Origin: Candidatus Staskawiczbacteria bacterium RIFCSPHIGHO2_01_FULL_39_25
GTDB lineage: Bacteria > Patescibacteriota > Minisyncoccia > Minisyncoccales > Staskawiczbacteraceae
Length of the DNA stretch: 64,000 nucleotides
Direction of reading: 5' to 3'
Assembly (NCBI GenBank): GCA_001820095.1
Contig: MHOO01000011.1
Location: 199,227-263,226, forward strand
Part shown: piece after piece, positions 3,315 through 22,381 of the stretch
Position numbering within the stretch: position 1 is the stretch's first letter
Layout of the letters: every line of letters begins with the position of its first letter
Program-made: the position numbers and the translations under genes
Notes under the pieces: generated by a model
Seen by the model: only the letters and a program-made list of their open reading frames with translations
The model's database searches: none
Told to the model about the DNA's origin: nothing

Positions 3315-4148
3315 ATGAGCCAAGATTGGGAATCAAAATTAATGACCTTTGAAGAATATGCCAGAAAAAAACATGATCCAGTATATATTTTTGACGTAGA
3401 ATTTGGCAGTAAAAAAGTAACTTATTTTGGTGCCGAACATAACCACAATCCTGAAAGCCCGATGTTTGATCGCATTGAAGCAGAGTTTAAAAAAGCTGAT
3501 CCCCAGATTGTATTTGTGGAAGGAATGTATTTTTCGCAAGGTGGAAAACAAAAGGCGATCGAAAAATATAAAAATACCGATAGAGAATCGGTTATTAAAA
3601 ATCACGGAGAATCAGTGTATGTTTTCAGGTTAGCGGCTGACGCCGGGATTGAAGTTGATTCTCCAGAATCATCGCTTAGTGATGAAATTACTTTTTTACT
3701 GCAGCAAGAATTTTCAAAGGAACAAATTTTTTGCTTCTATGGGTATCGTCAAATCAATGGATTGCATCGCTTAGCAGATAAATCTAAATTTAATGAAGAA
3801 TTAACAAGATATATTTCAGTTTTTCAAAGGGATAGTCAGTGGAAAGATTTTGATTATTCGCCTGAACATTTGGAAAAAATTGGAAAATCAGTTTGGGGAG
3901 AAGTGCGCGGCGACGTTATGATTAACGATGGGTACCGAACAACACCCGTACCGCCAGAAGATAAGAAATTATTTACACTCATTAATCAGATCAACCAAGA
4001 GGTAACTCATTTTAGAGACTGCAATGTCGTACGGAGAGTTGTAGATGCCTTAAAAACCCACGATCGACTATTTATTATTTTTGGATCAACTCATGCTGTC
4101 ATGCAGGAACCAGCTTTGAGATATTTAGCAGAAAGTTATGATAAATAA
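3315..4148 (+). CDS. hypothetical protein (tentatively TraB/GumN-like)
   Basis: long ORF with AT-rich codon use; FGAEHNH near N-terminus and FGSTHAV near C-terminus resemble the TraB/GumN layout; weak. Confidence 0.45.
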   Translation: MSQDWESKLMTFEEYARKKHDPVYIFDVEFGSKKVTYFGAEHNHNPESPMFDRIEAEFKKADPQIVFVEGMYFSQGGKQKAIEKYKNTDRESVIKNHGESVYVFRLAADAGIEVDSPESSLSDEITFLLQQEFSKEQIFCFYGYRQINGLHRLADKSKFNEELTRYISVFQRDSQWKDFDYSPEHLEKIGKSVWGEVRGDVMINDGYRTTPVPPEDKKLFTLINQINQEVTHFRDCNVVRRVVDALKTHDRLFIIFGSTHAVMQEPALRYLAESYDK

Positions 4149-4149
4149 A

Positions 4150-4239
4150 ATGGCAAAATACGATTCAACAACCAAAGACAATAAATGCATTTTTTGTGAA
4201 ATAGTTTCGGGAAACATAAAAACTCCTGGGCTGTTCTGA
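4150..4239 (+). pseudogene. 5' fragment of a HIT-family (histidine triad) gene
   Basis: encodes MAKYDSTTKDNKCIFCEIVSGNIKTPGLF*, a typical HIT N-terminus (CIFC..V.G); stop TGA is the first 3 nt of the repeat at 4237. Confidence 0.6.
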
Positions 4240-4298
4240 TAAAGGTGGCTGACACCTTTACTCACCTTTACTCCTTTACTTTGACACCTTTACTCGAG
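4237..4298 (+). repeat. direct repeat copy 1 (tgataaaggtggctgacaccttta + cctttac words)
   Basis: 24 nt identical to 12411-12434, followed by similar cctttac/ctttaac word run; contains hairpin taaaggtg-gctga-caccttta. Confidence 0.7.
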
Positions 4299-4427
4299 AA
4301 AATAATATACCTTATAAACCGTTACGCGACGGGGAGGTAATTATCGTTAATGATAATAATTTGGAAATCATAAAATAAAAGAAGGGTGACAACTCGAGTA
4401 GTTATCACCCTTTTGGTTTGCAGGAAA

Positions 4428-5732
4428 TTACGGCGTCAGCCGGTTAGGGCCACGGTAGAGATACGTGGCTTCTCGGATGTTTTTGACACCCAGAAGCATC
4501 ATCAGTACCCGAGCCAGGCCGAGTCCGAAGCCTCCGTGTGGCGGACAGCCATAGCGGAAGCATTCCAAATAGTACTTGATTGGATCCAGGGTCAGGCCTT
4601 TCTCCTGGGCTTGCTGGACCAGAACATCGTACCTATGCTCACGCTGGGCACCCGTCGTCACTTCGAGTCCTTTCCAAAGAAGGTCGAAGCTCTTGGTGGC
4701 TTTCGGGCTATCAGCGTGGCGCATGTGGTAGAACGGACGCACGCTGATCGGGTAGTCGGTCACAAACACGAAGTCGTGGCCGGTTTTTTCTTTCATGTGA
4801 GCGCAGAGTTGGCGCTCGCCTTCGGGATCAAGGTCGCCCTTGGTCTCGGCGGAGAGCACGTGGCCGCGCTGTGCGAGAATCGCGTACGCTTCCTGCATCG
4901 AAAGACGCGGGAAAGGCAGCGTGGGAACTTCCACTTCGACGCCGAAGTACTTGGCCACGGCTTCACTGTGCTTGTCCTTGAGGGACTGGAGTACGTACTG
5001 GAGCCACCGCTCTTCGAACTTCATGACATCGTCGTGGGATTCGATCCAGGAAATCTCCACGTCCACACTAGTAAACTCCGTCGCGTGTCTGGACGTGAAT
5101 GACGGTTCAGCACGGAACACCGGTCCGATCTCAAACACCTTGTCGAAGCCCGCCGACATCGCCATCTGCTTGTAAAACTGAGGCGACTGGGCAAGGTACG
5201 CATTGGTCTCGAAGTATTTGACGGTGAAAAGCTCTGATCCCGATTCACTCGGACTTCCCATGAACTTGGGTGAGTGGATCTCGATGAAACCTTCTCTGGT
5301 CCAGAACTCGCGCATGGCGTGTTCCGCCGCCGTTTGGATCTGGAAGATCAGGTAGTTGGCGGGACGGCGCAGGTCTAGGAAGCGCCAGTCGAGGCGCAGG
5401 TCCAGGCCGGATTCTTCCGTGATAGGAAGAGTCGGAGGAGCCACGTTGATGACTTTGAGGTCATCGATGGCGATTTCCAGACCGCCGAGCTTAATCTTTT
5501 CGTTGGCGACCACGGTGCCGGTCAACTCCACTGCGGTTTCTGCTGTGAGGCTAGAGATGAGGACGCTCAGGGGATCCTCCTTCTTTTCACGCACGGTCTG
5601 GACGAGGCCAGTATGGTCGCGAACGACGATGAACTGGACCCGCTTCTGGTCGCGGAGGGTCTGAACCCATCCTTTGACGCAGACGGTGCTGCCGACGGCA
5701 CTTTTGAGAGTGCTGATCAAGGTACGTTCCAT
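4428..5732 (-). CDS. aspS: aspartyl-tRNA synthetase, archaeal/short type, GC-rich copy
   Basis: class II motifs FRAE, GLEVTTGAQREH, GGFGLGLARVLM; 434 aa without the bacterial insertion domain; G/C-rich third positions unlike host genes; RBS gaaaggaagg upstream. Confidence 0.9.
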   Translation of the reverse strand: MERTLISTLKSAVGSTVCVKGWVQTLRDQKRVQFIVVRDHTGLVQTVREKKEDPLSVLISSLTAETAVELTGTVVANEKIKLGGLEIAIDDLKVINVAPPTLPITEESGLDLRLDWRFLDLRRPANYLIFQIQTAAEHAMREFWTREGFIEIHSPKFMGSPSESGSELFTVKYFETNAYLAQSPQFYKQMAMSAGFDKVFEIGPVFRAEPSFTSRHATEFTSVDVEISWIESHDDVMKFEERWLQYVLQSLKDKHSEAVAKYFGVEVEVPTLPFPRLSMQEAYAILAQRGHVLSAETKGDLDPEGERQLCAHMKEKTGHDFVFVTDYPISVRPFYHMRHADSPKATKSFDLLWKGLEVTTGAQREHRYDVLVQQAQEKGLTLDPIKYYLECFRYGCPPHGGFGLGLARVLMMLLGVKNIREATYLYRGPNRLTP

Positions 5733-5869
5733 AAGAACACCTTCCTTTCAGGTTAGATGACTTGTTAAGGTTCTTATTTTACAGATCTAGACGATAAGTA
5801 AAATACTATGCTACTTTACCTCTTTATTATATATTTGTCAATATTTTATAAAACAAAAATTATGCTATC

Positions 5870-7195
5870 ATGAATGACATGGAAAAGATACATATTGATC
5901 AAATAAAAAATAATATCGGTAAGCAGATAACTATTACCGGATTCGTCCAAACGATCAGAGATCAGAAAAACATTAAGTTTTTTTTGATCCGTGATATTTC
6001 AGGAGTCATCCAGGTTGTCATTACCAAAGACAAGGAAGAGGCATTCAAAAATTCTTCCGGTTTGAGTTTGGAGTCAGTAGTAGAAATTACCGGTTTAGCT
6101 AAAGAAGAAAAACAAGCGCTAGGAGGTTTTGAAATAGCCGTAGAAAGCATTGCGACACTCTCTTTATCTGATCCAGAACTTCCAATCCCTGTTATCGAAA
6201 AAGGCCAACAAGAAGAAACCGACCAGTCGATTCGTCTTGATTGGCGATGGATTGATTTACGTAAAGAAAAAAACACTTTGGTATTTAAAGTGTGGACCGT
6301 TATGGAGCAGGCGTTCCGGGAATACTGGGTTAAGAACAACTATATTGAAATCCATTCTCCAAAACTCATTGCTACCGCAAGTGAATCTGGTTCAGAAGTA
6401 TTTGAAGTGAAATATTTTGAACGCAAAGCTTATCTTGCCCAATCTCCGCAATTTTACAAACAAATGGCCATGGCCGGCGGATTTGAAAAGGTATTTGAAG
6501 TAGGGCCGGTATTTCGAGCTGAACCATCGTTCACATCACGGCATGCTACAGAGTTTACCGGTTATGATACTGAAATTTCTTACGTAAAATCCCATTACGA
6601 TATCATGGAAGAAGAAGAAAAAGTAATTCAATATGCATTAGAAAAAGTAAAAGAAAAATATGGCGAAGAAATCTTGAAAGTATTCGGCAGGGAAGTAGTA
6701 GTTCCTAAAATTCCTTTTCCAAAGATTTCTATGAAAGAGACTAAAGAAATACTAGCGAAGATGAGAATCAAAAGCGAAAAGGAAGGCGATATTTCTCCAG
6801 AAGAAGAACGAAAAATCTGCGAATACGTTAAAGAAAAAGAAAACCACGAATTCGTATTTATCACTGAATATCCGGTAAGTGTGCGGCCGTTTTATCACAT
6901 GCATGATGAAGAAGACCCAAAAGTTACTAAGAGTTTTGATTTGTTATGGAACGGTCTTGAGGTAACTACGGGGGCGCAACGTGAACACAGATACGACGTG
7001 CTGGTTGCGCAGGCCAAAGAAAAAAAGATGGATATTGAACATTTGCAATTTTATCTTAACTTTTTTAAATATGGCTGTCCTCCGCATGGCGGTTATGGTA
7101 TGGGTCCCAACAGAATGATTATGCAGCTTTTGGGACTTGATAATGTTCGAGATGCGATGTTTGTATATCGCGGAGTTAATCGATTGACGCCGTAA
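5870..7195 (+). CDS. aspS: aspartyl-tRNA synthetase, archaeal/short type, AT-rich copy
   Basis: 441 aa with the same class II motifs; long blocks identical to the 4428-5732 product; host-like codon use. Confidence 0.9.
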   Translation: MNDMEKIHIDQIKNNIGKQITITGFVQTIRDQKNIKFFLIRDISGVIQVVITKDKEEAFKNSSGLSLESVVEITGLAKEEKQALGGFEIAVESIATLSLSDPELPIPVIEKGQQEETDQSIRLDWRWIDLRKEKNTLVFKVWTVMEQAFREYWVKNNYIEIHSPKLIATASESGSEVFEVKYFERKAYLAQSPQFYKQMAMAGGFEKVFEVGPVFRAEPSFTSRHATEFTGYDTEISYVKSHYDIMEEEEKVIQYALEKVKEKYGEEILKVFGREVVVPKIPFPKISMKETKEILAKMRIKSEKEGDISPEEERKICEYVKEKENHEFVFITEYPVSVRPFYHMHDEEDPKVTKSFDLLWNGLEVTTGAQREHRYDVLVAQAKEKKMDIEHLQFYLNFFKYGCPPHGGYGMGPNRMIMQLLGLDNVRDAMFVYRGVNRLTP

Positions 7196-7209
7196 AGATA
7201 TTTTGCGTA

Positions 7210-7251
7210 AAAAAATAGCTCGGGGTGAAATGATTCACTCCGAGCTTTATT
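7210..7251. terminator. bidirectional hairpin terminator between convergent genes
   Basis: agctcggggtga-aatgat-tcactccgagct flanked by an A-run and a T-run. Confidence 0.6.
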
Positions 7252-8304
7252 TTACGTCGGGGTTGCCAGATGATCAAGGAAATCGCAATAGGCTGCAGTC
7301 AATGGAGCCTCTTTACTACGTTCCCCGATAATCCGCCTTGCAATGCCTTGAATCCATGTCGCACTGTGCTTGTTATGAAGCCGGAAGGCTTCGCAAGCAA
7401 GAGTTGACAAGATGTCAGCCCAAACTGCCGCATATTCTCCCCAGAATTTGCTCATCTGGTCGAACATTGCGTTGGCTGAGTGTGCGCTTTTGCTTCTTAT
7501 GTCTGCTTCCTCCTGGACCAGCCTGAGCCTCAACGTTTCTGAGAACGACGAGATTGCAGGCATGGCGCAGGATTCAGCCGTTTCTCGCGAAAGTTTTTGA
7601 GCTTTGGCAATATTTTCACCTCTGATGTGCATTGACACCGCGGTGTGCCAATAATTGCCAAGCCTTAAACCTGTGCAAGCAGACATGCATTCCTGCAAAA
7701 GCGAGAACTCGAACACGTTGTAGGGCAACAGTTGTATTGCATCGTTCGCGCGCATAGCGACTGTTGTGTGCAACGTGTCACTTCGCGGCATGAAAGCGAT
7801 ATTGAGCGTGCATGGAATGTCTTGTGATTCCAAGCGCGCAAGATCACTTGCGTCATGGAGGTCGATTACCGCCCGCTTCGTGTCGGAACGAGTCGAAATG
7901 GTTTTTGAAGCCAAATCAAACTGGTTCTTTCCTGAAGCTCCTCCAAAAATCCTCATGCCGTATGAAGAACCTGGTATGGTGATACCGTCGTCTGAAAAAC
8001 AGCAGGCTGATTTGGAGTAGAACGCAATCGGCTCAAGCAGATTCGATCCGGATAGCATATAGATGAAGCGCGCTGCCGCAAGTCCTGGATTGAACAGGGG
8101 CAATGCGCTTTTGAATATGCGTTTTCGCGGATCAGTCAGACAGAGCTGGGCATTGAACACTTCCTGAATCGAGAAGTCCCGGTTCATAGAGTGTTCGCCC
8201 GATTGGTAAGTAATGCCATGCGCACTAATCCTGCCGATCATTTCGCGTATGACCGCATTCGTGTCGTCACCCATGACGACACCTACCGAATGTAGTGAGT
8301 CCAC
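7252..8304 (-). CDS. thymidylate synthase / dCMP-hydroxymethylase-fold protein with C-terminal extension
   Basis: IPCTLNIAFMPRSDTLHTTVAMRANDAIQLLPYNVFEFSLL aligns by eye with ThyA [37 protein letters not shown] (Pro-Cys nucleophile, R-x-x-D, LP-x-N); GTG start 1 nt after upstream stop; GC-rich. Confidence 0.7.
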   Translation of the reverse strand: MDSLHSVGVVMGDDTNAVIREMIGRISAHGITYQSGEHSMNRDFSIQEVFNAQLCLTDPRKRIFKSALPLFNPGLAAARFIYMLSGSNLLEPIAFYSKSACCFSDDGITIPGSSYGMRIFGGASGKNQFDLASKTISTRSDTKRAVIDLHDASDLARLESQDIPCTLNIAFMPRSDTLHTTVAMRANDAIQLLPYNVFEFSLLQECMSACTGLRLGNYWHTAVSMHIRGENIAKAQKLSRETAESCAMPAISSFSETLRLRLVQEEADIRSKSAHSANAMFDQMSKFWGEYAAVWADILSTLACEAFRLHNKHSATWIQGIARRIIGERSKEAPLTAAYCDFLDHLATPT

Positions 8305-8305
8305 A

Positions 8306-9856
8306 TCAAGTCCTCCTTTCTTGTCGGATGAATTCCGTCAGATCCTTCAGGTTTGCCGATGGCTGACAGAGTTGGTTGAGATCTTCGGTCCAGATGCTCA
8401 TCTGGTTTCCTATGATCGGATCAATCACTTCCGGATGAGAAGCCTCATCCTTTTCGACGAGCCGAAAGTGCTTTGCGGCTTGATACGCATTTGCCAAGTC
8501 GTTTTGTGGAATGCCGGTCAACTCGCGTACCACATGATCCGCAAACATGATTCCATGTTTTGCATAGTCCTGAAGCAGGCGCATTGTAGTGTACAGGCGC
8601 AGAGCGGGCGTTTCCATTGCCGAATATGCGACTTGGAATACAAAGTTGCGCATGTCCAGCAAAGAATCGATTCCGGGTTCCACTTCCCGAGCATAGCCAA
8701 GAAGAACATCAGTTGGGCGGGTAACTGCAGTAAGCTGTAGCACATCCCTAGAAATAGTTTCCCAGTAGCCTTTCCAGGAATTTATATGTTCCACCGGCTG
8801 CCAAGAATCGGGCGATGATGCGTTGACGATCATTCTTCCGTTTGCGGGAAGATAGACCGATAGCCTCCTTGAGTGGAATTGACGGGGAGTGTTGTAATTG
8901 GGAACTTGTCCCAATTTTGACCGCCAGTAGGTGTATCCTCGAAGGACGGTTTCGTAAAAATTGTGCCCTTCTCCGTGGGTGCCGCGCATAGAAAGGTTAA
9001 AGAAACTGTCGCCAATTTCTTCCACTTTCTTGACATCGCTCCACGAAGTTCCAGGCACATCCTGTTTCGACATTTTCTTGGCAAAGCCAAGAAAATAGGT
9101 TGGTTTGTAGATTACCGGAATTTCCATGTCTCCGGTAACCAGCCAGCGGGTGGGGAATGCGTCGATGATGGGCAGATTGATTACCGGATCAGAAGGATTC
9201 TTTTCCGGCAGCAATTCTGCTCCAAGTCTTTGCGCCAGTTGGATGTCCAGGTTTTGGTTCGGATCAAGGATAGTGCGAACGACGGGACGGATATTGATTC
9301 CGTCGTCGCTTCGTGCGACCGCATACCTGATTGCATGCAGCACATTCTCAACGGACACGTTGTGGAACGTGTCGTAGCTGATGCGCAGGATGAATGTTAA
9401 ATTCCGTCCTCGCATCTTGTTTCCGCGACGCATGGCGTCGATGAACCTGTCCAACATCCGTTCGGTGGCTTCCGCGCTTTCAGCGAAATAAACGCTGGTG
9501 ATGGTCACCACTTCGTGGATGTTTTCCAGATTTTCGACTGCGTAGCACATGGCATCCATGTTCTCATACGATTCTCCGCCGCCGGAAAATACCAGCAACT
9601 GAGCCTTGGCCTCGTTCATGATCTTCACGAAAATTCGCATCTGATCCATGGAGAGCCGAGGCGGAGAACCACCAAAAATCTTTTTTGCCATTGCCGCCGA
9701 AAAGAGGCAGTTTGGGCATGTCAGTGCGCATTGGTCGGCAGCGTTGACGACCATAACCGAAACTTCGAGATTTTCAGCAGACCCGATTTCCGGTACATGT
9801 CGCGCAAGATAGGCGCGCAGTAAATGGGCGTTGCGATCATCAAACAAAGCGTTCAT
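8306..9856 (-). CDS. radical SAM protein with ~300-aa uncharacterised C-terminal domain
   Basis: CxxxCxxC motif CALTCPNC, glycine-rich FSGGGES; GC-rich; aggag RBS. Confidence 0.75.
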   Translation of the reverse strand: MNALFDDRNAHLLRAYLARHVPEIGSAENLEVSVMVVNAADQCALTCPNCLFSAAMAKKIFGGSPPRLSMDQMRIFVKIMNEAKAQLLVFSGGGESYENMDAMCYAVENLENIHEVVTITSVYFAESAEATERMLDRFIDAMRRGNKMRGRNLTFILRISYDTFHNVSVENVLHAIRYAVARSDDGINIRPVVRTILDPNQNLDIQLAQRLGAELLPEKNPSDPVINLPIIDAFPTRWLVTGDMEIPVIYKPTYFLGFAKKMSKQDVPGTSWSDVKKVEEIGDSFFNLSMRGTHGEGHNFYETVLRGYTYWRSKLGQVPNYNTPRQFHSRRLSVYLPANGRMIVNASSPDSWQPVEHINSWKGYWETISRDVLQLTAVTRPTDVLLGYAREVEPGIDSLLDMRNFVFQVAYSAMETPALRLYTTMRLLQDYAKHGIMFADHVVRELTGIPQNDLANAYQAAKHFRLVEKDEASHPEVIDPIIGNQMSIWTEDLNQLCQPSANLKDLTEFIRQERRT

Positions 9857-9934
9857 CTTTTTCTCCTGGGTTTGAGTTCGGTGCTATATTCTCTCTCGAT
9901 AGAGAGCTTTGACAAGGAGCAATCTTTTGCGTAA

Positions 9935-9963
9935 ATAATAATATAGAATTATAAAAATGTCAA
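9935..9963 (-). promoter_or_regulatory. sigma70-like promoter for 8306-9856/7252-8304 unit
   Basis: minus strand TTGACA, 17 nt spacer, TATTAT in the AT-rich spacer. Confidence 0.5.
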
Positions 9964-9984
9964 CAATAAAAAAGATAATTTTAC

Positions 9985-10017
9985 CATAATAAAACCCCCG
10001 ATTTCTGGTCGAGGGTT
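9985..10017 (-). terminator. terminator after methyltransferase gene
   Basis: minus strand aaccctcga-ccagaaa-tcgggggtt hairpin followed by a T-rich tract. Confidence 0.5.
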
Positions 10018-10038
10018 ATGGCTGAAAAACAGCCTTTA

Positions 10039-10776
10039 TTACTTTGAGGCGCTGCAATGTTTGAAAATTGCGCGCACTGATCCATGGCGATGGTTTTCTT
10101 CGGAACCGGCATGGCTGTGAACGATGTCAGTTTCATCCCAGTGGAGCAGGCTCCAATTTTCCGGCCCGAATAGAGTTTTGATCCGTTCGGGGTTCATAAT
10201 GACTCCTTTCAGTTCCGGCTGGATGTCTGGAGCGGGGTATTTGTCTGTCAGGCTTTGCATGATCAGGTAACCGCTTTTGAGAACGATTTGCCTGATGGCA
10301 TCAATTACTTGATGTAGGACAGATTCTTCCTTGAACACATGCAGAAGGCCGTAACAGACTACGATGTCGAATTGCTCACGGTTGTGTTTCAGGAAGCTGA
10401 GCGCGTCATCTTTGACGAGCGCGATTCTTCCTTCTGGCAACAGTCCCGATTCTTCAAGTTTCACGGTAACATCAAGCAATGTTGCCATGGCAAGAGAATC
10501 TATTTCGACAGCGATAGCCCGTTTAACATCTCGACGGACAAATTCCATGATGTTTTTGCCCGTACCGGCACCCAGTTCCAGAACCGAAAATTCGGTCCAT
10601 GGCAAAGATGCCATCTGGTTGAAGAAATGAACCACTTCGCTTCCAGGCTTTAAGCCCCAGAAATCCAATCCATGGGAGCGATAGCCGTTCCTGTAGAGGC
10701 CGATGCCTTCGCCACTTCCTTTTTGAGGATGGGCGAGGACTTCTTGCATTTCTTCGACAGTGAAGAGTGGATTCAC
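10039..10776 (-). CDS. class I SAM-dependent methyltransferase
   Basis: motif I VLELGAGTGKN, acidic AVEID, post-I VVCYGLLH; GC-rich; 14 nt downstream of radical SAM gene. Confidence 0.8.
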   Translation of the reverse strand: MNPLFTVEEMQEVLAHPQKGSGEGIGLYRNGYRSHGLDFWGLKPGSEVVHFFNQMASLPWTEFSVLELGAGTGKNIMEFVRRDVKRAIAVEIDSLAMATLLDVTVKLEESGLLPEGRIALVKDDALSFLKHNREQFDIVVCYGLLHVFKEESVLHQVIDAIRQIVLKSGYLIMQSLTDKYPAPDIQPELKGVIMNPERIKTLFGPENWSLLHWDETDIVHSHAGSEENHRHGSVRAIFKHCSASK

Positions 10777-10790
10777 TTTGACCCCCTTTC

Positions 10791-11786
10791 TTAATAAGTT
10801 TTTTGGGCGTTTGCGGTTATGGTGAACAGACCGTTGACTGACTGGAGTCGGTTGATGATAGCTTTGGGTTGATCTGTCAGGATATTACTCATGAACACAT
10901 CCTTGGTTCCCTGAGTGACTGTCACGACACCGGTAGGTTGCACGAGGAGTGCCGGACTTGCGTAGAAGTCGGCAAGGCTGTGGATGGTCACCCGGATTTT
11001 GTCTCTGAACAGGCGCAGTGCTTCTTCTACGATTGTCCTGTAAGTGTCATCCGAAACACTCATTCGGTCGGCGTTCAATCCTGAAGTACGTCCGACTTCC
11101 CGCCCGAAGAACTGTGTCAGCTTCCAGTTGTCCACGCCAAGGTCTACCATCATGTGGCCCAGTTGGACAATCTTGTTGATGTCTGAGGTCACTGAGGTGA
11201 TCGTGGTACCGACCTTTACTTTGAAGCCGTACTTTTTCAGTTCGGGGATTAGGGCAATCGTTTTGGTGAAGGCAGCATCGTCTCCCCTGATTTCGCTGTT
11301 GGACTTGGCATCCGGGCCGTCCAGTGAAAGCGAGAACCACTTCACATTTCTGTTTGCACAGAATGCCAGCATGGAATTTGTGACATGCATGCCCGTGGTT
11401 TGCACGATCGTTTCCCGGTTGCGCCGAGAAATTTCATCTACCAGTAGGAGAACGTCGTTGCGGTGAGATTCCGGGTCAGCCCTGACGAAAATCTCGCCAC
11501 CAGTGAGTTGAATCCTGTCCGTCAAAATGGCAAGACTGTTGATGATTTTTGCCATTTGTTCGGTGGAGGCGTCCCTGGTGAGTCCCTGGAACTCCTCTTC
11601 CGCATAGCAGTGCGGACACTGCAGATGACAGCGTCCCGTCACGTAGAGGGAAACAAAACCGATGCGAGCAGCCAGGGCAGGCAGTTTTTCATACTGTTCG
11701 AATATTTCAGCGAGTGCTTGGGCGCGTTTGTCGCCCAATTCCTGGCGGGAAGTAACGTACTTCCTGCTAACCTGTGGTAGTTCCAT
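10791..11786 (-). CDS. radical SAM protein, viperin-like (tentative) / MoaA-like fold
   Basis: CHLQCPHC cluster motif, LTGGEIF, SLSLDG; C-terminal NWKLTQFF...SVSDDTY parallels viperin RWKVFQCL...SDEEF by eye; GC-rich. Confidence 0.7.
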   Translation of the reverse strand: MELPQVSRKYVTSRQELGDKRAQALAEIFEQYEKLPALAARIGFVSLYVTGRCHLQCPHCYAEEEFQGLTRDASTEQMAKIINSLAILTDRIQLTGGEIFVRADPESHRNDVLLLVDEISRRNRETIVQTTGMHVTNSMLAFCANRNVKWFSLSLDGPDAKSNSEIRGDDAAFTKTIALIPELKKYGFKVKVGTTITSVTSDINKIVQLGHMMVDLGVDNWKLTQFFGREVGRTSGLNADRMSVSDDTYRTIVEEALRLFRDKIRVTIHSLADFYASPALLVQPTGVVTVTQGTKDVFMSNILTDQPKAIINRLQSVNGLFTITANAQKTY

Positions 11787-11964
11787 GGCATCTTCCTTTC
11801 GTTGATGGGGTTGATTGTAAAAGAGCCGTTCATGCTCTCTAGTACTAGTGTATCAGTGTGCTAATATAATATCACTTATAATTACTTTTGTAAAGACTTT
11901 TGACCATTGAAAATTATTGCATTTTGGTTAGAAAAAAGGCAAAATGGATTTATTAGAAATTAAT

Positions 11965-12378
11965 ATGAATATTTTTGAAAGGGTTAAAAAATTGAATTTT
12001 CCACTAGGAGAATATGTTGTCATCGGAGCTGGTATCCTTGAAGCTATTGGGATAAGGAATACTCATGATGTCGATATTATTGTGGCGCCACAATTGTTTG
12101 AGAAGCTTAGAGAATCTAAAATCTATAAAGAAGAAATAAAGTGGGGCAAAATATTTTTAATTGGAGATGAAATTGAAATTGGTACCAAATTAGATTGGGA
12201 AAACTATTCAACTACTATTGAAGAAGCAATTAATACTGCAGCTATTATTAACGGTGTGCCGTTTTTAAACCTTGAAGAAACTATAAAATTTAAAAGGGCG
12301 ATGGGCAGGAAAAAAGACTTTAAAGATATTGAATTGATAGAAAGTTATTTAAAAAATTATGATAAAAATCTACTTTAA
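11965..12378 (+). CDS. hypothetical protein, nucleotidyltransferase-fold-like
   Basis: VVIGAGILEAIGIRNTHDVDIIV resembles a minimal NTase G-x-motif plus DxD; ATG 11965 preferred over 11944 because the fragment at 13263 starts at the equivalent residue. Confidence 0.45.
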   Translation: MNIFERVKKLNFPLGEYVVIGAGILEAIGIRNTHDVDIIVAPQLFEKLRESKIYKEEIKWGKIFLIGDEIEIGTKLDWENYSTTIEEAINTAAIINGVPFLNLEETIKFKRAMGRKKDFKDIELIESYLKNYDKNLL

Positions 12379-12564: not shown

Positions 12565-12593
12565 CAAAAAATAAAAAAATTCTCAAAGGTGAT

Positions 12594-13196
12594 ATGAAAA
12601 AACAAATTGTAATAATCCATGGGGGAACAACTTTTGACAATTATGAAGAGTATATTAATTTTCTCAAAAATAGTAAAGTTAATGCCGAAAAGTTTAAAAC
12701 ATCTAAACATTGGCAAAATTTTCTAGATAAGGAGCTAGAGGAAATTTTTGAAGTATTTACACCTAGGATGCCAAATAGGAATAATGCCCGTTATCAGGAG
12801 TGGCGCATTTGGTTTGAGAAAATAATTCCTTTTATCAATGATGATGTAATACTTTTAGGGTATTCTTTGGGAGGGATTTTTTTGGCAAAATATCTTTCTG
12901 AAAATATATTTCCTAAAAAAATAAAAGCAGTATTATTGGTTGCGACTCCTTTTAATAGTGTTGGCTTGAAAGAATCTTTGGGTGATTTTACTTTATCTAC
13001 GCCTCTTAAAGATTTCTCTTTGCAAACTAAAAAAACCTATTTAATATTCAGTAAAGATGATTCAGATGTGCCATTTGAACAATTAGATAAATACAAAAAA
13101 ATATTATCGAATTCAGAAATAATGAATTTTATAGATAAGGGTCATTTTTACCAAGATTCTTTCCCTGAGATAGTCGAGTTAATAAAAAATATCTGA
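12594..13196 (+). CDS. alpha/beta serine hydrolase (YdeN/RBBP9-like)
   Basis: nucleophile elbow GYSLGG, later SKDD and DKGHF consistent with a Ser-Asp-His triad. Confidence 0.6.
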   Translation: MKKQIVIIHGGTTFDNYEEYINFLKNSKVNAEKFKTSKHWQNFLDKELEEIFEVFTPRMPNRNNARYQEWRIWFEKIIPFINDDVILLGYSLGGIFLAKYLSENIFPKKIKAVLLVATPFNSVGLKESLGDFTLSTPLKDFSLQTKKTYLIFSKDDSDVPFEQLDKYKKILSNSEIMNFIDKGHFYQDSFPEIVELIKNI

Positions 13197-14686: not shown

Positions 14687-15196
14687 ATGAAGAAAGAACT
14701 AGTGCCTCGTTTTGCATTTTTTGTATCTGGTACCGGAAAACATGATGATCGTCTCCAAGCGTTTGATAAGGCTCTACTTAGTGCTGGGCCACTTGCTCAT
14801 AATTTAGTTTCCGTATCAAGCATATTTCCAGCCGGTTGTAAAGTTATATCTGCTCAAAAGGGCTTTTCTATGCTTACTCCTGGTCAGATTACCTTCTGTA
14901 TTATGGCTAGACAAGAAACAAATCAATTCGGTGATGTCGCTTCAGCAGCAGTTGGTCTCGCAATAAAAAACAACAAAAATTTTGGTTATATCTCTGAATA
15001 TCATGGAGCCGCAAAAAATGTGAGTGAGGCTAAATTAATTGCTGAAAAATTGGCTAAAGAAATGTTTGCTAGGAAAATTAGTGTAGATTCTGAAAACCTT
15101 AAACTTGAAATGATTCAGGCAACTTCAGCTTCAATTACTTGTGATAAAAAAAACGAATGGGTGTGTGCTGTTGCCCTTTGTATTTTTGTTTTATAG
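14687..15196 (+). CDS. pdaD: pyruvoyl-dependent arginine decarboxylase
   Basis: size and FFVSGTG...NLVSVSSIFP pattern with a Ser-Ser self-cleavage site, typical of the PvlArgDC family. Confidence 0.7.
   Translation: MKKELVPRFAFFVSGTGKHDDRLQAFDKALLSAGPLAHNLVSVSSIFPAGCKVISAQKGFSMLTPGQITFCIMARQETNQFGDVASAAVGLAIKNNKNFGYISEYHGAAKNVSEAKLIAEKLAKEMFARKISVDSENLKLEMIQATSASITCDKKNEWVCAVALCIFVL

Positions 15197-21328: not shown

Positions 21329-22381
<1,053 letters not shown>

Follow-up and report, generated by a model that had tools for sequence, protein, structure and literature searches.

What does a compact block of GC-rich genes do in the genome of an ultra-small bacterium of the Candidate Phyla Radiation (CPR)? 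The block lies in a 64,000-nucleotide stretch of DNA (the window) taken from contig MHOO01000011.1 of Candidatus Staskawiczbacteria bacterium RIFCSPHIGHO2_01_FULL_39_25, whose genome is 743 kb long and 99% complete. It holds four genes, encoding two radical S-adenosylmethionine (SAM) enzymes (rSAM1 and rSAM2), a class I SAM-dependent transferase, and a thymidylate synthase (TS)-fold protein, and is adjoined by two extra genes for aspartyl-tRNA synthetase (AspRS). We consider it about an even bet that this horizontally acquired region directs the synthesis of an AspRS inhibitor, a modified uridine nucleoside or nucleotide, to which the spare AspRS copies would confer self-resistance. Observed directly are the genes present, the folds and active-site residues of their products, a conserved linkage to extra AspRS genes, and a foreign base composition. 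Searches of the literature found no description of this gene combination or of radical SAM clusters linked to AspRS.

The two AspRS genes, which the four-gene account in a first-pass annotation of this DNA had overlooked, stand on the TS-fold side of the cluster and score as aspartate--tRNA(Asn) ligases (Table 1). Together with the housekeeping gene on another contig (bacterial type, GAD-less; G000:C12:14914-16290, TIGR00459, 590 bits), they bring to three the AspRS genes of this small genome: one housekeeping and two of archaeal type beside the cluster. The relatives searched carry a similar GAD-less bacterial-type AspRS, and a housekeeping AspRS accompanied by extra archaeal-type copies occurs likewise in genomes G011 and G041. 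Such an arrangement, in which a biosynthetic cluster stands beside a divergent extra copy of an essential enzyme and the housekeeping copy is located elsewhere, is the classical sign of self-resistance, documented for albomycin (AbmK), agrocin 84 (AgnB2), and others, such as the mupirocin type.

By protein searches, context look-ups, and a scan of 185,579 species genomes, we gathered 15 cluster loci (the window, L008, L009, L013, L015-L024, and an ERZ1292631 contig). All 15 contain the core of rSAM1, methyltransferase, and rSAM2 genes, and 12 of them also contain the TS-fold gene. The genes thus do co-occur elsewhere, as the early picture of a four-gene unit implied, but that picture was incomplete in that the AspRS genes belong to the unit too and one subfamily does without the TS-fold gene. 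An archaeal-type AspRS gene lies within 10 kb of the cluster in 13 of the 15 loci; of the other two, L009 has a bacterial-type AspRS ∼4 kb from the cluster and L013 stops at a contig edge. AspRS is the last gene of the operon in L018, and in L019 (the complete 0.69-Mb Paceibacterota genome CP129473.1) three AspRS paralogs lie between two halves of the cluster, with the housekeeping AspRS 70 kb away. Orthologues of AspRS-B adjoin the cluster in L008, L019, and L020, and orthologues of AspRS-A accompany it in L020, L019, and L015. A maximum-likelihood tree divides the linked AspRSs among at least three well-supported clades, which show no correspondence to the rSAM2 subtypes; the side of the cluster on which the AspRS gene lies, and its strand, differ among loci. 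The linkage has therefore been kept through replacement of the AspRS itself, which argues for function over hitch-hiking.

The linked paralogs keep class II motif 2 (FRAE), motif 3, and QSPQ, and most have a canonical aspartate site and an anticodon-binding domain; by these features they look like working AspRS enzymes. AspRS-A is a second extra copy, horizontally acquired, and AspRS-B is the candidate drug-insensitive AspRS. AspRS serves both Asp and Asn decoding in this organism, since a profile search found no asparaginyl-tRNA synthetase above the cut-off in its genome and GatB is present. The third AspRS paralog of L019 (15650-16972, minus strand) is highly divergent, with ∼30% identity and a long branch, and has lost QSPQ; it could be a candidate for a noncanonical, biosynthetic role.

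The block itself is real and foreign. All four minus-strand open reading frames (ORFs) lie exactly where they had first been placed, GC-rich in AT-rich surroundings, with spacings of 14 nt between rSAM1 and the methyltransferase gene and 1 nt between rSAM2 and the TS-fold gene, and the motifs first quoted for the four proteins are all present. Pfam and NCBIfam profiles identify radical SAM, class I methyltransferase, and Thymidylat_synt domains among them. The GC content of the cluster is 0.49 to 0.52 (0.52 to 0.61 at third codon positions [GC3]), against 0.29 to 0.36 for adjoining genes and 0.39 for the whole window. The hairpin noted near 9985-10017 and the TTGACA-17-TATTAT promoter were both found as consensus matches and would divide the cluster into two putative transcription units (at 9935..10017), and the hairpin between the convergent AspRS-B and TS-fold genes is likely a bidirectional terminator. 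Nine runs contain most of the window, and they derive from metagenomes of groundwater and soil. In runs of other samples, contigs identical to the window span positions 7003-12121, 4129-5286, 5586-6090, and 6132-7290; since such independent contigs bridge every junction between GC-rich and AT-rich DNA, the assembly chimera that had initially been considered is ruled out. The block recurs in a second genome of the genus, with proteins that are 84 to 92% identical, and the cluster is patchy, being carried by 2 of 41 related genomes. It is foreign in composition and horizontally acquired.

The first gene of the cluster encodes a radical SAM enzyme with the fold of viperin. Its protein, rSAM1, contains the motifs CHLQCPHC, LTGGEIF, SLSLDG, NWKLTQFF, and SVSDDTY; C53, C57, C60, and G96-G97 are invariant and E98 is kept in at least 90% of 36 relatives, and a W221-K222..Q..F226 motif is conserved. 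The AlphaFold model (predicted local distance difference test score [pLDDT], 93) superposes over residues 39-331 on mouse viperin 70-353 with a Z score of 28.3 and a root mean square deviation of 2.4 Å over 271 residues (VIA-align), and Foldseek matches rSAM1 to viperin with an E value of 6.5e-15. In the fold search, the ten top entries are all viperins, the next family scores a Z of ∼23.7, and MoaA scores 19; the likeness takes in both the partial barrel and the closing C-terminal extension. In a profile alignment, the WK..QF and SxxD motifs fall on RWKVFQ...SDKQF of a fungal viperin-like enzyme.

The viperin resemblance first noticed by eye was thus borne out for the fold, the C-terminal extension, and the motif alignment, but it does not extend to membership in the curated family: rSAM1 scores 56.1 bits against NF038283 (viperin_w_prok), below the cut-off of 180. 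Its nearest sequence neighbors among 1.84 billion cluster representatives also match viperin_w_prok best, with 82 to 139 bits, all below the cut-off, and the lineage is rare, with 18 representatives at an E value of ≤1e-30. PADLOC gives pVip as the best match (E value, 1.7e-18). Compared with viperins and pVips (NF038283, TIGR04278), rSAM1 shares the partial barrel and C-terminal extension, CxxxCxxC, GGE, and the aligned WK..QF, yet it has a 40-residue N-terminal extension, does not conserve the Arg of the RWK motif within its family, and sits in a biosynthetic rather than a defense gene context. We take rSAM1 as a rare sister lineage of viperins and not a viperin, a label that is good for the fold alone.

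The TS-fold protein is related to an antibiotic biosynthesis enzyme. It carries the IPC, RAND, and LPYN motifs, scores 43.9 bits against PF00303 (gathering score, 24.3), and has MilA as its best solved relative (5b6d/5jnh; E value, 5e-28 over residues 45-275), with ThyA at ∼1e-6; its database entry begins 10 residues downstream of the start of the 350-amino-acid ORF. Mapping residue roles from published work (PMC5175136, PMC13326640) places Cys165 in the column of the nucleophile (ThyA C146, MilA Cys155), where it is invariant in 21 relatives. Early assignment to the TS fold therefore stands, with the nucleophile kept, but one part of the catalytic core does not: Arg79 occupies the column of the catalytic Glu (ThyA E58, MilA E68), as Arg does in at least 90% of the family, and the Glu is kept in the two most distant relatives, P0030 and P0031, alone. 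The protein resembles the CMP (cytidine monophosphate) 5-hydroxymethylases MilA and BcmA, of mildiomycin and bacimethrin, in its Cys nucleophile, the ribonucleotide-favoring Lys/Ala pair (K143/A186, equivalent to MilA K133/A176), the His, and the hydroxymethylase-type acidic residue at the ThyA L143 position (D162). It differs from them in Arg79, in Arg228 for MilA Tyr218, and in Asn196, which is of the uracil type (ThyA N177) in place of the cytosine-selecting MilA D186. Asn196 and K143/A186 predict a uracil ribonucleotide substrate, unlike the CMP of MilA. Eight TS-fold proteins that are cluster-linked or related (P0017, P0018, P0019, and P0024-P0028) have Asn or Ser at the ThyA D169 position (MRANN, MRANS, or MRSNN), which recent work associates with TS homologues that hydroxylate C5 in a flavin-dependent manner; Asp stays in place in the window protein. 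Bearing on a putative use of methylene-tetrahydrofolate by the latter, serine hydroxymethyltransferase is encoded in the genome. Profile searches of the neighboring genes of the cluster detected no MilB-type N-glycosidase.

The transferase, whose gene always follows rSAM1 in related loci, contains the motif VLELGAGTGKN and matches Methyltransf_25/11, Cons_hypoth95, and Spermine_synth in Pfam; its PDB matches, to RsmD-like proteins and spermidine synthases, are weak. The transferred group could, on these similarities, be a methyl group or an aminocarboxypropyl or aminopropyl group.

For rSAM2, which contains CALTCPNC, neither a Pfam search nor a sequence-based PDB search gave a match, and the protein was placed by a fold search. 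EpeE is the top fold match of its model (pLDDT, 81), with a Z score of 17.7 and 298 of 317 residues aligned, ahead of the next match at 13.2, and the EpeE-like architecture covers residues 30-434. What had been described as a ∼300-residue C-terminal domain of unknown kind in a radical SAM protein is therefore mostly the remainder of this architecture; the radical SAM assignment itself holds. The resemblance to the EpeE/YydG epimerases includes a weak match to TIGR04078 (YydG), at 22 bits against a cut-off of 300. Unlike those enzymes, rSAM2 has large insertions, an extra C-terminal tail of ∼80 residues, and no conserved cysteines for auxiliary clusters or H donation: in its family of 22 proteins, C43, C47, and C50 are the sole invariant cysteines, and GGGE is invariant as well. 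A further difference is the precursor peptide gene, which was not found in the intergenic gaps of the window. The ORFs seen in the five gaps scanned are all implausible; they have 9 to 31 codons and overlap with promoter-like sites, and a reading as a ribosomally synthesized and posttranslationally modified peptide was dropped. A complex prediction of rSAM2 with the TS-fold protein scored 0.00 and carries no information on binding either way.

As a kind of system, an aminoacyl-tRNA synthetase (aaRS)-inhibitor cluster with a resistant copy of its target is already known; new here are the combination of enzymes, its occurrence in CPR hosts, and the duplication of AspRS as the proposed target of a cluster outside the microcin type. 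The literature consulted names just two kinds of natural antibiotic that act on AspRS, those of the microcin C family and dealanylascamycin, a sulfamoyl-nucleoside (PMC8323819, PMC12262901). In its logic, the region comes closest to albomycin, a thionucleoside of Streptomyces that targets seryl-tRNA synthetase (SerRS); its abm genes encode a resistant SerRS (AbmK), an aaRS-like protein (AbmF), a radical SAM epimerase (AbmJ), AbmI, which is an N-methyltransferase, and the carbamoyltransferase AbmE, and of the two aaRS homologues one serves immunity and aminoacyl-adenylate supply and the other is a condensing enzyme (PMC9032320). Albomycin and the window would have pyrimidine-nucleoside chemistry in common, and each has a pair of aaRS homologues within or next to its cluster as well as a housekeeping aaRS at another place in the genome. 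They differ in the synthetase concerned (SerRS there, AspRS here), in the lack of detectable sequence homology between the four core enzymes and the Abm enzymes (AbmM is here a generic radical SAM fold match to rSAM2, with a Z score of 10.7), in the absence from the window cluster of a siderophore or nonribosomal peptide synthetase part, a pyridoxal phosphate-dependent transaldolase, and a kinase, and in the host, which here is a CPR bacterium whose genome measures 0.74 Mb.

Microcin C-like clusters make AspRS-targeting aspartamidyl-adenylates or -cytidylates and so share the proposed target. In some actinobacterial ones, an additional gene for aspartate-tRNA synthetase is the putative immunity determinant (PMC8323819); within the group, aminocarboxypropyl is transferred by a class I SAM transferase (MccD), and enzymes of the HIT and GNAT families confer immunity (PMC8323819, PMC7157772). 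In contrast to them, the window has two radical SAM enzymes and a TS-fold protein as its core and no MccB/ThiF enzyme or precursor-peptide ORF that we could find; a ThiF/MccB-like gene was found solely at the equivalent locus of genome G023. Agrocin 84 (agn) is likewise a nucleotide-type mimic of an aminoacyl-adenylate with immunity through a second copy of the target, the leucyl-tRNA synthetase (LeuRS) AgnB2, which is ∼1,000-fold less sensitive (PMC8323819); the synthetase is a different one, and the comparison is by logic and not by enzyme homology. The 4′-thiothymidine cluster of Photorhabdus, with radical SAM ThmA, AbmG-like nucleoside kinase ThmB, and nucleoside triphosphatase ThmC (PMC12691670), is set apart by its description.

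The product, its target, and the steps toward it are proposed from homology, as follows. In the MilA-like enzyme, Cys165 would attack C6 of a uracil ribonucleotide, whose C5 would then be functionalized, with hydroxymethylation as the closest precedent. The viperin-fold rSAM1 would take a sugar hydrogen from the nucleotide, leading to a viperin-type dehydration or another rearrangement of the ribose, and the class I transferase would attach a methyl or aminocarboxypropyl group. The EpeE-like rSAM2 would epimerize or rearrange the sugar or an alpha-carbon, as a functional analogue of AbmJ in albomycin. One AspRS paralog would provide activated aspartate for an aspartyl-adenylate mimic, and one or both would withstand the product, so that the producer could go on charging tRNA-Asp, as well as tRNA-Asn, given that Asn-tRNA is made via GatCAB. 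The MilA relative, the nucleoside-antibiotic enzymes BlsE and AbmM in the fold match lists, and the tailoring and export genes of variant clusters are consistent with this proposal. The genes added in such variants encode glycosyltransferases, a carbamoyltransferase and a DegT aminotransferase, a nucleoside phosphorylase, a condensation domain, a tRNA-synt_2b-like ligase, and exporters of the ABC or MFS type.

Several observations weigh against a self-protected AspRS-inhibitor cluster. One subfamily (L018, L023, and L024) lacks the TS-fold gene, and the change from Glu to Arg leaves the C5 chemistry, and with it the base-modification step, uncertain, as does the existence of a flavin-dependent (hydroxylase) branch of the TS fold (PMC13326640). 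Among the core enzymes, there is no obvious amide- or phosphoramidate-forming ligase besides the AspRS paralogs. Profile searches of positions 1 to 27 kb of the window found no exporter or uptake (Trojan-horse) module, MFS or ABC transporter genes being found in the L015 and L013 variants alone. Orphan archaeal-type AspRS genes without a cluster within 10 kb occur in genomes G010, G029, G013, and G023, so that the paralog may have a use of its own; under the inhibitor proposal, such relatives would be immune nonproducers. Finally, the cluster loci are related by descent, and the count of 13 in 15 overstates the number of independent observations.

Four other explanations each fit part of the data, and none covers the combination of interchangeable intact AspRS copies, nucleotide-type enzymes, and tailoring genes. 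Aminoacyl-tRNA synthetase paralogs with dedicated biosynthetic radical SAM partners are established (PylB with PylS, EpmB with EpmA), and by that precedent the radical SAM enzymes and the transferase could make a modified aspartate or acyl group that an AspRS paralog ligates onto tRNA-Asp, another RNA, or a protein, in the manner of PylS/PylBCD, EpmA/EpmB, or GluQRS and with no part in immunity. The resemblance of rSAM2 to a peptide or amino acid C-alpha epimerase, the position of AspRS within the operon in L018, and the L019 paralog without QSPQ all suit such a ligase. We nevertheless think it unlikely: the aspartate site and anticodon-binding domain are canonical in most paralogs, several interchangeable AspRS clades fit a generic copy of a target better than a specialized ligase, and the other two enzymes have relatives that act on nucleotides (viperin and MilA). 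Furthermore, Rfam at gathering thresholds gave no matches anywhere in the window, and no tRNA gene lies in the window or near 14 other cluster or AspRS-B loci, save unrelated tRNA-Pro and tRNA-Ala genes in L019, on which grounds a dedicated tRNA partner was dropped. Radical SAM enzymes and C5-uridine chemistry are also common in tRNA modification, and the enzymes could instead hypermodify a pyrimidine in tRNA-Asp or another RNA, the extra AspRS recognizing the modified tRNA; the weak RsmD-like matches of the transferase (Cons_hypoth95) and the strict AspRS linkage would then make sense. Viperins act on nucleoside triphosphates, however; profile searches of the four proteins detected no PUA, THUMP, or TRAM RNA-binding domains, and a sporadic, horizontally moved cluster is unusual for a modification critical to translation. 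With all characterized TS-fold enzymes acting on free mononucleotides (PMC5175136, PMC13326640), RNA modification appears distinctly improbable.

The viperin fold of rSAM1, its pVip match in PADLOC, and the best matches of its neighbors to viperin_w_prok invite comparison with pVip-like defense, in which a chain-terminating or otherwise toxic nucleotide is made upon phage infection. Against this stand the score under the curated viperin cut-off (56 versus 180 bits) and the searches with profiles and PADLOC, which found no nucleotide kinase and no defense-island neighborhood; apart from the weak pVip match and a generic methyltransferase match, PADLOC reported nothing. An antiviral role would leave the extra AspRS, the second radical SAM enzyme, and the tailoring genes of variant clusters unexplained, and we give it little credence. 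Nucleic acid hypermodification or nucleotide salvage, such as a substitute thymidylate or deoxynucleotide route with the AspRS genes as unrelated neighbors, is in our judgment highly improbable. In its favor, no ThyA other than the cluster gene was found in the 99%-complete genome (search with the TS-fold protein), nor was ThyX (profile search); serine hydroxymethyltransferase is present, and distant TS-fold relatives sit in prophages beside DNA-hypermodification genes. The cluster is found in 2 of 41 related genomes, however, and is therefore not housekeeping; the catalytic Glu is gone, the ribonucleotide-type residues are present, the locus lacks phage genes, and the AspRS linkage seen in 13 of the 15 loci is beyond chance. 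Profile searches of the genome also found no FolD. Thymidine is probably obtained by salvage in this organism, and Asn-tRNA by transamidation. The first-pass annotation had proposed a pathway to a modified pyrimidine, acting as an antibiotic, an antiviral, or a nucleic acid hypermodification; that was a reasonable inference, and the AspRS context favors its antibiotic option over the other two.

Table 1. Coordinates and basis of assignment of features in the window (aa, amino acids)
Feature	Positions	Strand	Basis or remark
HIT-family remnant, 29 codons (MAKYDSTTKDNKCIFCEIVSGN...), two stop codons at end	4150..4239	plus	at edge of AspRS-A segment
Terminator-like site of AspRS-A	4412-4382	minus	consensus scan
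AspRS paralog A, archaeal type, 434 aa	4428..5732	minus	NF003483, 495 bits; GC 0.57, GC3 0.72
Promoter-like site of AspRS-A	5841-5813	minus	consensus scan
AspRS paralog B, archaeal/nondiscriminating type, 441 aa	5870..7195	plus	NF003483, 511 bits; GC 0.38
13-bp hairpin	7217..7246	no strand	consensus scan; between convergent AspRS-B and TS-fold genes
MilA-like TS-fold protein, 350 aa, GTG start	7252..8304	minus	PF00303 and MilA match
rSAM2, radical SAM with EpeE/YydG-like architecture, 516 aa	8306..9856	minus	fold match
Promoter-like TTGACA-17-TATTAT	9963-9935	minus	consensus match, 11/12 positions
Terminator-like hairpin	10017-9993	minus	consensus match; after methyltransferase gene
Class I SAM-dependent transferase, 245 aa, GTG start	10039..10776	minus	Pfam matches
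rSAM1, viperin-fold radical SAM, 331 aa	10791..11786	minus	PF04055 (E value, 2.7e-15) and model
Carbamoyltransferase, 573 aa	15204..16925	minus	Carbam_trans_N/C; AT-rich, 3.4 kb from cluster

The surroundings of the cluster and a sister locus add to the comparison with AspRS-directed systems. Genome G023, of the same genus and without the cluster, has an orthologous AspRS-B locus with an Acetyltransf_3 GNAT gene, a DDE transposase gene, and a GC-rich ThiF-family gene, and directly upstream of its AspRS-B lies an intact HIT gene of 119 amino acids (L011:9201-9560; PF01230; E value, 5e-24). The HIT remnant of the window looks like a scar of the insertion of the GC-rich AspRS-A. The ThiF-family adenylyltransferase of G023 (449 amino acids, winged helix-turn-helix plus ThiF) matches ThiF (9e-26) and MccB (2e-24) equally well in the PDB, and the locus may be a microcin C-like module in the same "AspRS island." Peptidyl-nucleotides that target AspRS are made by MccB and detoxified by enzymes of the HIT and GNAT families (PMC7157772, PMC8323819). 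By analogy, the occurrence of these families of immunity and synthesis at the G023 locus lends support to an AspRS inhibitor. An "MGNN" mini-ORF upstream of the ThiF-like gene was dismissed, as it overlaps a promoter-like −10 element.

The ThiF-family gene, an agmatinase-family gene, and the GNAT gene of this sister locus lie at L011 (G023:C3) 4367-6957 and 12583-13041, the agmatinase-family gene at 4367-5647 on the minus strand. The window has a gene for a pyruvoyl-dependent arginine decarboxylase at 14687-15196 (plus strand), and genes of arginine and agmatine metabolism thus recur around the island. The carbamoyltransferase of the window was not found in 24 other genomes of the genus that were searched, and the related cluster of L013 includes a homologue with 36% identity; the window enzyme may serve in accessory tailoring, with a putative link to the cluster. 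Some 10 kb from the cluster, a GC-richer patch (0.42 to 0.50) holds a second tryptophanyl-tRNA synthetase gene (21341-22381, plus strand; TIGR00233, 251 bits against a cut-off of 177), and a higher-scoring class Ib match at G000:C11:124099-124938 is probably the housekeeping copy. Spare copies of two aminoacyl-tRNA synthetases in a 743-kb genome hint at further resistance to antibiotics directed at these enzymes.

A broader claim is tempting, and we regard it as possible but doubtful: that CPR bacteria, host-attached and with genomes of <1 Mb, make a new class of aaRS inhibitor, an aspartyl-adenylate mimic built on a modified uridine by viperin-fold and EpeE-like radical SAM enzymes and a Glu-less TS-fold enzyme, and protect themselves with swappable archaeal-type AspRS. 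The enzymes are of note in themselves, as a sister group of viperins outside immunity, a TS-fold protein with Arg for Glu, and a large EpeE-like radical SAM protein without auxiliary clusters. If the broader claim is true, viperin-type sugar chemistry would serve antibiotic synthesis instead of antiviral defense. If the inhibitor proposal itself holds, AspRS inhibition is reached here by a chemical route not seen before, which would matter directly to the search for antibiotics. Ultra-small CPR bacteria would then possess something rare, a secondary-metabolite cluster that carries its own resistance marker, the spare AspRS serving as a simple handle for genome mining and experiment. Interactions between CPR bacteria and their hosts are poorly understood, and these bacteria would, on the broader claim, have a chemical weapon or a host-control molecule.

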